Assembly (NCBI RefSeq): GCF_036507355.1
Contig: NZ_AP027877.1
Strand: one strand, 5' to 3'
Length of the DNA: 64,000 nucleotides
Source: Escherichia coli
GTDB lineage: Bacteria; Pseudomonadota; Gammaproteobacteria; Enterobacterales; Enterobacteriaceae
Of the stretch, positions 10,045 through 50,290 are shown piece after piece (the first letter of the stretch is position 1; every line of letters begins with the position of its first letter). The notes beneath the pieces were generated by a model that made no database searches, was not told the DNA's origin, and saw only the letters and a list, made by a program, of their open reading frames with translations. The position numbers and the translations under genes are program-made.

Positions 10045-10953
10045 TTACTTCTTAATGCCCATCTCTTCTTCAAGCCAGGCTTTAAATTCCGTGCCAAGGG
10101 TGTTATGACGAATACCGTATTCAACGAAGGCCTGCATGTAACCTAATTTATTACCGCAGTCATGGCTCTTCCCTTTCATATGATAGGCTTCAACCGTTTC
10201 TTTTTCGATTAGCATATCAATTGCGTCGGTGAGCTGAATTTCATCACCAGCTCCCGGAGGGGTTTTTGCCAGCAACGGCCAAATATCCGCACTAAGTACG
10301 TAACGACCCACAATAGCGAGATTAGACGGCGCAACATCCGCTTTTGGTTTTTCAACCACGCCAACCATCGGTACGCTTTCACCCGGCGCTAATTCAACGC
10401 CTTTGCAATCCACAACGCCATATGCGGTCACATCAGCAACCGGTTCAACCATGATCTGGCTATGACCCGTTTCATCGAAGCGGCGGATCATCTCTGCCAG
10501 GTTATCCTGTGATAAATCGGATTCATATTCATCCAGAATAACGTCAGGCAAAATAACAGCCACAGGTTCATCACCCACTACCGGGTGAGCACACAATACC
10601 GCGTGTCCCAGGCCTTTCGCCAGCCCCTGACGAACTTGCATAATAGTTACGTGCGGCGGACAAATAGACTGCACTTCATCAAGCAGTTGACGTTTTACAC
10701 GTTTTTCCAGCATTGCTTCCAGTTCAAAACTGGTATCAAAGTGGTTTTCAATAGAGTTTTTAGATGAGTGTGTAACCAGCACAATTTCAGTAATGCCAGC
10801 CGCAATACATTCATTCACGACGTATTGAATTAATGGCTTATCGACAAGTGGCAGCATCTCTTTCGGGATGGCTTTCGTCGCCGGCAACATCCTGGTTCCT
10901 AATCCCGCAACGGGGATAACGGCTTTTTTGACTTTCGTATTAATGGCAGCCAT
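10045..10953 (-). CDS. galU: UTP-glucose-1-phosphate uridylyltransferase
   Basis: 302-aa [47 protein letters not shown]... Confidence 0.95.
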
Positions 10954-14709: not shown

Positions 14710-14747
14710 TTTACAGCGGCGCGTCATTTGATATGATGCGCCCCGCT
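14710..14747 (+). promoter_or_regulatory. tyrT stringent sigma70 promoter (-35 TTTACA, -10 TATGAT, GC-rich discriminator)
   Basis: TTTACA at 14710-14715, 16-bp spacer, TATGAT at 14732-14737 then GCGCCCCGC discriminator about 40 nt before mature tRNA 5' end. Confidence 0.8.
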
Positions 14748-14787: not shown

Positions 14788-14872
<85 letters not shown>

Positions 14873-14906
14873 CCTCAAGCATTACCTCAAAATTTGAATT
14901 ACCCCT

Positions 14907-14991
<85 letters not shown>

Positions 14992-15350
14992 TCACTTTTC
15001 AAAAGTCCCTGAACTCTCAAACGAATCCGTAATTAAATATTCTGCCCAAGCGGGGAAGGATGAGAAGCTTCGACCAAGGTTCGACTTGAGCGCCAGCGAG
15101 AGAGCGTTGCCGCAGGCAACGACCCGAAGGGCGAAGCGCGCAGCGCTGAGTAATCCTTCCCCCACCACCATCATTTTCAAAAGTCCCTGAACTCTCAAGC
15201 GAATCCGCAATTAAATATTCTGCCCATGCGGGGAAGGATGAGAAGCTTCGACCAAGGTTCGACTCGAGCGCCAGCGAGAGAGCGTTGCCGCAGGCAACGA
15301 CCCGAAGGGCGAAGCGCGCAGCGCTGAGTAATCCTTCCCCCACCACCATC
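14992..15350 (+). repeat. rtT: rtT tandem repeats of the tyrT operon (two ~178-bp units, each ending with a tRNA 3'-end-like AATCCTTCCCCCACCACCATC)
   Basis: Two near-identical units; period 178 bp measured between the tRNA-3'-like motifs ending at 15172 and 15350. Confidence 0.85.
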
Positions 15351-15531
15351 GCTTCCTGAAATAATCAAAACCTGTTACTCCGAGCTAATTCTGCCCGATG
15401 GCACCGCGTTTACCGGACCTAAAATATCCTTCCCTGTAGTTCGGATAAGCAAAGCGCATTCGACAACTCCCCCCGCACCGTGCCCATAAAAAAACCCCGC
15501 CGAAGCAGGGTCTATGTGAACTAAAATTCGC

Positions 15532-16209
15532 TTAGTGACGAGCGCGCACCAGCTGGTACTTACGTGTCAGATACTCCACCGGTACGCTCCAGATGTGTAC
15601 CAGACGCGAGAACGGGAACAGCAGGAATAACGTCATCCCCAGCACCAGGTGCAGACGGAAGATAAACGCCACACCATCGAGGTGTTGAGAAGCGCCACCG
15701 TGGAAGGTCACCACCGACTGCGCCCAGCCAACCAGTTTCATCATCTCGCTACCGTCCATATGCTGAGCGGAGAACGGAATGGTCAACAGGCCCAGCGCGC
15801 ACTGGATAACGAGCAGCGACAGGATCAGGATATCCGCTCCGGTAGTGGTTGCACGCACGCGTGGGCTGAACAGACGACGCTTAAGCAACAGCACGCCGCC
15901 AATCAGACACAGCACGCCGCTGGCACCACCAGCAAACATCGCCATTTTCTGTTTCACTTCAATCGGCAGCCAGGCTTCATACATCCAGTGCGGCGTCAGC
16001 ATACCGAAGAAGTGACCGACAAAAATCCCCAGAATACCGATATGGAACAGGTTCGACGCCAGGTTCATCCCTTTGCGATCCAGCATCTGGCTGGACGCCG
16101 CGCGCCAGGTGTACTGCCCGTAGTCATAACGCAGCCAGCTACCAATCAGGAAGACCGCCCCGGCTATATACGGGTAGATATCAAAGAAGAACATATTCAG
16201 GAATTGCAT
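15532..16209 (-). CDS. narI: Respiratory nitrate reductase A gamma subunit (heme b membrane anchor)
   Basis: 225-aa polytopic membrane [38 protein letters not shown]... Confidence 0.95.
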
Positions 16210-31436: not shown

Positions 31437-31539
31437 GTTGCGGGGGCTTTATCCCTGGTGGCATTGGTTGCTGGAAAGAGAAAACCCCCGCACGTTGAGA
31501 GGTAAAACCTGACAACAGAACGGGGGCTAATCTTGAACC
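31437..31539 (-). ncRNA. rdl: Rdl antisense RNA (type I antitoxin), copy 1; coordinates approximate
   Basis: Minus-strand sequence ...GATTAGCCCCCGTTCTGTTGTCAGG...CGTGCGGGGGTTTTCTCTTTCCAGCAACCAATGCCACCAGGGATAAAGCCCCCGC matches remembered Rdl RNA, complementary to the ldr 5' leader. Ends not determined. Confidence 0.4.
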
Positions 31540-31592
31540 ATCAACAATTCAAGAATAGCCGCAAAATGTTGTCATTACAACAAGGCGGCTAT

Positions 31593-49888: not shown

Positions 49889-49949
49889 CTAAGCATCACA
49901 GTGGCAGGTCGACAGGGACAAACCTGTGAGTCTGCAGGCTCGACGTTGT

Positions 49950-50290
49950 GACAGAAACAATCGCATCACACATCAACACCACAGCTTCCCGCTTCTGGTC
50001 TGTCGTCAATACTTTCGCCCAAGAACCACCTGAAGCGCCTGAAGCGCCTCCTTATCCGGCATGGCTTCAGCAAGCAGCTTCTTTGAGTCTGGCGTTCTCT
50101 TCCTCAAGCGACTCCAGGTGCTTAACCTCAAGCACCGCCATACTTCTTATGCTATGTGTAAAGAGTGGCATCGGAAATAGCGTGCTTGCAGCAGAGCTCA
50201 CGGGCAGAAACTCCAGCTTCTGCTTCACGGAGAACGCTGATTATCTGTTCGTCGGAAAAACGCTTCTTCATGGGAATCATATTCGGCGTC
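49950..50290 (-). pseudogene. IS3-family OrfA remnant (truncated, internal stop)
   Basis: Minus-strand translation from 50279 gives MIPMKKRFSDEQIISVLREAEAGVSARELCCKHAISDATLYT then a stop, with ...LKSLEEENARLKKLLAEAM... continuing out of frame; no cognate OrfB follows. Confidence 0.55.

Follow-up and report, generated by a model that had tools for sequence, protein, structure and literature searches.

How many rtT repeats follow the tyrT-tyrV genes of a given Escherichia coli genome, and by what kind of change does their number differ between strains? We addressed this with a stretch of 64,000 nucleotides from E. coli (contig NZ_AP027877.1), referred to below as the window. An earlier note on this DNA had proposed that two tandem copies of a 178-bp repeat resembling a tRNA 3' end lie behind tyrT-tyrV, that K-12 has roughly three, and that the locus varies by unequal recombination. 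The repeat family is already known: it was described from 1978 on (Egan & Landy 1978; Rossi et al. 1981), has an Rfam entry and is annotated automatically by PGAP, which calls such elements 'RtT sRNA' in E. coli genomes. Its multi-copy status and its loss from some strains have also been noted before; rttR was treated as multi-copy, and its loss was inferred in IAI39 and E2348 (PMC3318445). What our analysis refines is the difference from K-12 in the tyrT-tyrV spacer, the grammar of the modules, their distribution across the species and one resolved product of a deletion.

Two rtT units follow tyrV in the window

The array is located in the short non-coding stretch between purU and narI (Table 1). 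The promoter-like site in front of tyrT is a strong match to a sigma-70-type promoter, with the -35 element TTTACA, a spacer of 16 nt and the -10 element TATGAT, followed by the GC-rich discriminator GCGCCCCGC. K-12 has the identical sequence in front of its tyrT, and we take the site to be the tyrT promoter from what is established for K-12. The two tRNA genes have the same sequence without a single difference.

Table 1. Features of the tyrT-tyrV locus in the window
Feature	Position	Strand	Remarks
purU, stop codon	14626-14628	+	neighbour upstream of the tRNA operon
tyrT operon promoter-like site	14710-14737	+	consensus scan, 10/12 matches
tyrT, tRNA-Tyr(GTA)	14788-14872	+	ARAGORN; Rfam tRNA 53.4 bits
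tyrT-tyrV spacer, 34 bp	14873-14906	+	sequence
tyrV, tRNA-Tyr(GTA)	14907-14991	+	ARAGORN
partial '0.14' repeat copy	14973-14991	+	last 19 nt of tyrV
rtT / tRNA-linked repeat unit 1, 179 bp	14992-15170	+	split at the common 3' anchor
tpr-like frame of unit 1	15060-15089	+	9 codons, then TGA; translation MRSFDQGST
rtT / tRNA-linked repeat unit 2, 178 bp	15171-15348	+	split at the common 3' anchor
tpr-like ORF of unit 2	15238-15327	+	intact, 29 aa, arginine-rich
unique tail, 183 bp	15349-15531		array end to narI stop codon
narI ORF	15532-16209	minus	ORF list

With the Tandem Repeats Finder, one array was detected at 14973-15354 with a period of 178, 2.1 copies, 96% matches and a score of 722. It is the only tandem array in the 64-kb window that reaches a score of at least 100. 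A search for direct repeats returned copies at 14996-15172 and 15174-15350 that are 98% identical. When the array was split at its common 3' anchor, two units were obtained that lie head-to-tail directly downstream of tyrV and on the same strand. They are 97% identical; four substitutions and an indel of one base separate them. The anchor is the 19-nt sequence AATCCTTCCCCCACCACCA, tRNA-Tyr's 3' end, which ends without any change at 14991, 15170 and 15348. This 19-mer is also present inside tyrV, which is why the copy count is 2.14 and not 2.0. The two-unit array is far beyond what chance would produce.

Both units were recognised by the Rfam RtT model (RF00391), at 15039-15170 with 134.2 bits and at 15217-15348 with 137.5 bits, the two E-values being 6e-30 and 4e-29. 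The gathering score of the model is 45 bits and both matches cover its positions 1-130 of 130. Each unit starts with a linker of about 60 nt (14992-15051, 60 nt, in unit 1) that is C-rich and G-poor, with 17 C against 6-7 G, and continues with a hairpin domain that is GC-rich and about 110 nt long. In the predicted fold, a closing stem of 10 bp is formed by GGGGAAGGAU and AUCCUUCCCC, and CACCACCA is left unpaired at the 3' end of the unit. The z-scores of the folds are modest (-1.9 and -2.3), so the assignment to RtT rests on the covariance model and not on the folding energy. Each unit is closed by a copy of the tRNA 3' end and the tandem period after tyrV is 178 bp, as in the tRNA-linked repeats (TLRs). 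Taken together, the array almost certainly represents rtT / tRNA-linked repeats that form the 3' trailer of the tyrT-tyrV operon, in an allele with two units. Two of the proposals made from the sequence are thereby borne out, namely the nature of the repeat, by the covariance matches and the 19-nt identity to tRNA-Tyr, and the two tandem copies at 14992-15350, whose limits are correct to within 2 bp.

K-12 carries an additional unit between the tRNA genes

In K-12 MG1655 the locus has the opposite orientation and is annotated as tyrT, tyrV, rttR, tpr and ychS. Downstream of tyrV, the Tandem Repeats Finder detected 3.1 copies of the 178-bp unit, which agrees with the rough figure of three given in the earlier note. 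The classical description of K-12 speaks of 178 bp repeated 3.14 times. With Rfam, however, four RtT elements were found in K-12 and two in the window, so the figure of 3.14 repeats understates the K-12 content. The fourth element (132.9 bits, 1864-1995 of the K-12 locus L001) lies inside the 209-bp spacer between tyrT and tyrV and belongs to a divergent unit of 175 bp. In an alignment of the six unit sequences the mean column identity was 90%; the variable columns came mostly from the spacer unit and were concentrated in the linker.

The 34-bp spacer of the window is equal to the final 34 bp of the K-12 spacer and therefore the window is without exactly the 175-bp spacer module. The order of the modules is tRNA-tRNA-unit-unit in the window and tRNA-unit-tRNA-unit-unit-unit in K-12. 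The extra divergent spacer unit of K-12 and the variable number of tRNA-Tyr genes were both overlooked by the earlier note.

The 3' markers of unit 1 resemble those of the last K-12 unit, and unit 2 mixes markers of the second and the first K-12 unit. A simple derivation of the window allele from K-12 by the removal of one unit was considered and ruled out, since the window units, compared with those of K-12, are mosaic.

The number of units varies across E. coli

The locus was surveyed with a query consisting only of its two 981-bp flanks. The flanks matched 5,425 records and were joined into one place in 4,711 genomes, where the joined span gives the length of the locus (2,535 bp for the window type). 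Compared with the window type, the spans differed by -119 bp for a tRNA module, ±178 bp for each downstream unit and +175 bp for each spacer unit. The classes were read from 60 rows taken in even steps through the ranking, a sample and not a full census, in which the total number of RtT elements was 0 in 1 record, 1 in 17 records, 2 in 11, 3 in 9, 4 in 12 and 5 in 2, and the flanks were not joined in 8. Five of the 17 records with a single element had an IS4-family insertion further downstream.

The downstream unit was also used as a query by itself, without an anchor, against 5,426 complete E. coli genomes. It was present in 4,725 of them, at 10,069 places, with a median of 2 and a maximum of 9 per genome. 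Within a systematic sample of 60, there were 1, 2, 3, 4 and 5 places in 22, 16, 18, 3 and 1 genomes, respectively. Two downstream units are thus found in about a quarter of the genomes and are about as common as the three of K-12. As the species median is two, K-12 is not the reference state. No downstream-type unit is present in about 13% of the E. coli genomes, and some are without RtT altogether; the units therefore look dispensable. The spacer-type unit, searched with a spacer-specific 58-mer, was found in 1,920 of the 5,426 genomes, at up to 5 places. One genome of the whole collection has 9 places of the downstream unit, and 18 places are on plasmids.

The architectures were checked by the annotation and the sequence of fetched representatives (L001-L011) and are listed in Table 2. 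Alleles with a single tRNA-Tyr gene occur naturally (L005, L006, EC958). Many other complete genomes have the architecture of the window, among them TUM13936 and WCHEC020031 (98.8-99.1% identity). The downstream array ranged from 0 to at least 5 units in the inspected loci, so that the proposed variation in copy number is upheld and two copies are not the invariant state. A collapse of the repeats could now and then distort the copy number in a public 'complete' assembly.

Table 2. Module orders of the locus in E. coli (Tyr, tRNA-Tyr gene; R, RtT unit)
Order	Found in
Tyr-Tyr	L003
Tyr-Tyr-R	L004
Tyr-R	L005
Tyr-R-R	L006
Tyr-Tyr-R-R	window, L002, L115
Tyr-R-Tyr-R-R	O157:H7 EC4115, L007
Tyr-Tyr-R-R-R	L008
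Tyr-R-Tyr-R-R-R	K-12
Tyr-R-R-Tyr-R-R-R	L009
Tyr-Tyr-R×5	L010

Probable exchange of whole modules

Three types of module account for the locus: a tRNA module of 119 bp (the 34-nt spacer and the 85-nt gene), the downstream RtT unit of 178 bp and the spacer RtT unit of 175 bp. The anchor common to all module ends is at least 16 nt long. The differences in length among the surveyed loci correspond to whole modules of 119, 175 or 178 bp. When 26 downstream units from 12 loci were compared, few polymorphisms were found, and these occurred in mosaic combinations. All four gametes were present at 25 of the 210 informative site pairs, which indicates an exchange between units, although recurrent mutation could explain part of these pairs.

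The change can be followed most clearly in GPEC1446. Over 20 kb this strain is 99.2% identical to the window, and it has one unit of 179 bp. This unit combines the extra base of unit 1 at position 4 with the alleles of unit 2 at positions 30, 39, 58 and 96. This is exactly what a single in-register deletion would leave, the exchange lying within the 25 identical bases between the markers. WCHEC020031, with 99.1% identity, has two units. In the O157:H7-type strains EC4115 and 105 the downstream units are identical and a 294-bp module of tRNA plus spacer unit differs.

These results suggest how the array may change. The modules are long direct repeats in register, all ending in the 3' 19 nt of tRNA-Tyr. 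Unequal homologous recombination or replication slippage, acting in register, would then lead to the gain and loss of modules and to the shuffling of their polymorphisms. Such an exchange of modules would explain why strains have 0 to at least 5 units downstream, 0 to at least 2 in the spacer, and 1 or 2 tRNA-Tyr genes. The whole-module differences, the mosaic units and the chimeric unit of GPEC1446 support the unequal recombination proposed in the earlier note; slippage fits these data too, and the two are not separated by sequences alone.

All K-12 laboratory derivatives in the sample had four units, so the locus appears stable on laboratory time scales unless it is selected. In a laboratory supF strain one tRNA gene and RtT were lost (PMC12584984). 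A change in length is not always modular, since the sole RtT unit of JX21CE8 (L114) has internal deletions. It is 170 bp long and has lost 9 nt in the GC-rich hairpin domain, as a 7-nt block and two single bases; PGAP still calls the shortened RtT.

RtT arrays in other Enterobacterales

A degenerate 27-nt core pattern was searched in a collection with one genome per species. The RtT core was found at 99 loci, nearly all in Enterobacterales, with genera including Citrobacter, Enterobacter, Klebsiella, Kosakonia, Leclercia, Salmonella, Serratia, Pantoea and Xenorhabdus. Wherever the flank was long enough, it nearly always followed a tRNA-Tyr on the same strand. The arrays had 1-5 units with periods of 167-180 bp and occurred both in the Tyr-Tyr-R... 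and in the Tyr-R-Tyr-R... form. The modular, copy-variable design belongs to the RtT family and not to one strain.

Two loci stood apart. A Tyr-Tyr-R-R locus was present in a record labelled Chryseobacterium sp. 18061 (L072), which is probably a contamination or a mislabelled enterobacterial contig. The core was also found once after a tRNA-Gln, in a Cellvibrionaceae MAG (L053); this may be a chance match or a different TLR.

Small open reading frames within the units

On the plus strand, the only reading frames of at least 20 aa within the units were the tpr frame and two frames of 24-34 aa. In unit 1 the tpr frame is stopped by a T at unit position 96, which this unit has in common with the last K-12 unit (K12_d4). 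In unit 2 the frame is intact, and a 33-aa version of it begins at 15226. The peptide of 15238-15327 is identical to the K-12 Tpr, the 'protamine-like protein' (b1229), whose sequence was derived from the DNA of the K-12 locus. The frame is intact in some units only and is absent from strains without units. We regard 15238-15327 as a predicted Tpr ORF.

The opposite strand was also found to be open. In K-12, the ychS ORF (L001 1210-1485) runs antisense and wholly within the rtT units. Its analogue in the window is an antisense ORF of 110 aa that extends across both units (15017-15349, minus strand). As its length follows the number of units, it is probably no real gene.

Proposed transcription and processing of the trailer

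Between tyrV and narI, no intrinsic terminator was predicted on the plus strand; the one good hairpin with a T-run in this interval is the narGHJI terminator, located in the tail on the minus strand (15513-15492). Transcription of tyrT reportedly is ended by Rho about 225 nt past the CCA end of the tRNA, as ascribed to Kupper et al. 1978. In the window, this distance would place the stop where the C-rich linker of unit 2 ends. The lack of a predicted plus-strand terminator and the C-rich composition of the linkers fit a Rho-dependent end.

In K-12, 22 TLRs are found at ten loci, each closed by 18-19 bp of the 3' end of the upstream stable RNA, a sequence important for processing (PMC8144298). 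According to papers that cite Bosl & Kersten 1991, the tyrT transcript sets free an RNA that comes from the first K-12 unit. By analogy to the K-12 literature, the units of the window would be cotranscribed with the tRNAs. Because each unit boundary is a copy of the tRNA 3' end, it would be cut by the tRNA 3'-end processing machinery, yielding hairpin RNAs of about 170 nt (rtT/RttR), one for each transcribed unit. Transcription would be stopped by Rho within the C-rich linkers. Neither the RtT RNA nor the small Tpr ORF has an established function. The latest version of the CoCoNuT preprint (PMC10542128) makes no more mention of RtT.

The tail and other variable features of the window

The window is locally mosaic. 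Over the 190 nt after the last anchor (15349-15538, the tail and the adjoining bases of narI) it has the same sequence as TUM13936; the repeat units of that strain are different from its own. GPEC1446 and WCHEC020031, which have the most similar 20-kb context, show 9-11 differences from the window over these 190 nt.

In about 13% of the complete genomes (712 of 5,423, with flanks not joined) the 183-bp tail is replaced by a cluster of about 7 kb, for example in EcPF5 (L012 9386-16267) and EC958 (L013 6330-12318). The cluster encodes an acyl-CoA desaturase, a sterol-desaturase-family protein, a PAP2 phosphatase, an F390-synthetase-like protein, an MBL-fold hydrolase, an epimerase and KAS III. 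It occupies the interval from the last tRNA-3'-end anchor to the stop codon of narI, and its left junction is 5 nt past the anchor. In 19AR1321 (L011 1622-2821) and four other sampled genomes, an IS4-family transposase gene is located between the single RtT unit and narI; this insertion adds about 1.3 kb to the interval.

Elsewhere in the window, one Rfam match to an rdlD-type antitoxin RNA was found at 31479-31544 on the minus strand (83.6 bits). At the corresponding position K-12 has three tandem ldr/rdl long direct repeats, and the site may be a second copy-variable tandem array in the window. An IS1222-type ribosomal frameshift element at 49921-50039 (minus strand, 118.5 bits) points to an IS3-family insertion sequence.

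Alternative explanations of the two-unit array

A count of two might be an artefact of assembly, if at least three near-identical 178-bp repeats had been collapsed. Tandem repeats with 96-98% identity are indeed prone to collapse in short-read assemblies. Here, however, 5 differing positions separate the two units, which are cleanly resolved, the identical architecture recurs in many complete genomes such as TUM13936 and WCHEC020031, and two downstream units are the median of the species. We therefore consider a collapse highly improbable. The units might also be scars of integrative elements that target tRNA genes, with the array as a record of repeated integrations. Each unit ends with a direct copy of the tRNA 3' end, reminiscent of attL/attR pairs, and the 7-kb gene cluster begins 5 nt past the anchor in about 13% of the strains. 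Against this, the units are only 178 bp long, 95-98% identical and in strict register, and no integrase or cargo genes were found between the tRNA 3'-end repeats in the 178-179-bp units. The chimeric junctions lie inside a unit and the number changes between near-identical genomes, whereas independent integrations would not yield mosaic units with common polymorphisms. The far end of the 7-kb cluster itself is without a second anchor copy, and the cluster replaces the tail up to narI. An origin by integration is, in our view, scarcely credible.

A further alternative is an adaptive dosage, in which selection tunes the number of rtT units, Tpr ORFs or tRNA-Tyr genes. The RtT RNA could act as a regulatory sRNA or as a decoy for tRNA-processing enzymes, or the units could set the efficiency of Rho termination or of tRNA-Tyr maturation. 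The family and its tandem layout downstream of tRNA-Tyr are conserved across many genera of Enterobacterales, the linker varies far more than the hairpin domain, binding of Hfq and CsrA in vitro is known for related TLRs downstream of rRNA operons (PMC8144298), and a preprint describes a raised coverage of the rttR region under stress (10.1101/2024.07.17.603846). However, the TLRs of tRNA operons scored <0.01 as CsrA binders, the stringent-response phenotype of 1991 was later assigned to a neighbouring ORF, and the same source states that 'TLRs have no known function' (PMC8144298). The E. coli genomes without a downstream-type unit, or entirely without RtT, also argue against a tuned dosage, and near-identical genomes differ in copy number with no obvious ecological pattern. 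Selection on dosage thus seems very unlikely to us. The same holds for a bolder idea, that the anchor makes the locus a programmed and rapidly reversible 'module counter', whose number of units or tRNA genes is selected to tune the tRNA-Tyr supply, Rho termination or RtT activity, the anchor perhaps being the entry point of the 7-kb lipid-gene cluster as well. We give this little credence; the observed data concern the variation and its modular nature and give no support to such a role.

We conclude that the two-unit allele, explained best as one state of a trailer that gains and loses modules in register, is real but ordinary and of little import beyond bookkeeping. In annotation and typing, the interval can be treated as a small natural VNTR, one that can differ between genomes with about 99% identity over 20 kb.

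Comparison with known systems

The closest relative is the rtT/rttR array of the K-12 tyrTV locus. Both share the order purU-tyrT-tyrV-array-narI, the 178-bp period, the RtT match, the 19-nt ends and one identical Tpr ORF. The window differs by having two instead of three downstream units, no spacer unit and a 1-nt insertion in unit 1.

The RrA, RrB and RrF TLRs of rrnA, rrnB and rrnD (Rudd 1999) are likewise trailers of stable RNAs with an 18-19 bp repeat of the 3' end, and are cotranscribed and processed (PMC8144298). They are single elements with an intrinsic terminator on either side, and Hfq and CsrA bind to them in vitro, whereas the tyrTV units are in tandem and have no intrinsic terminator of the plus strand nearby. 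In the glyW-cysT-leuZ operon, 3'ETS-leuZ is also an RNA that is freed by tRNA processing from the 3' external spacer of a tRNA transcript, and it was the first functional bacterial tRNA-derived fragment (PMC8144298). This RNA is single and short and acts as an Hfq-dependent sponge for which the sRNA partners are defined, in contrast to RtT, which is repeated, variable in copy number and without a known partner. A functional resemblance between the two would be a lead only.

With respect to the change itself, the array resembles the crossing-over of the tyrT/tyrV (su3, supF) doublet to a singlet, where one tRNA-Tyr gene is lost via the duplicated genes. In the window, however, both tRNA genes are present and the variable modules are the units of the trailer.
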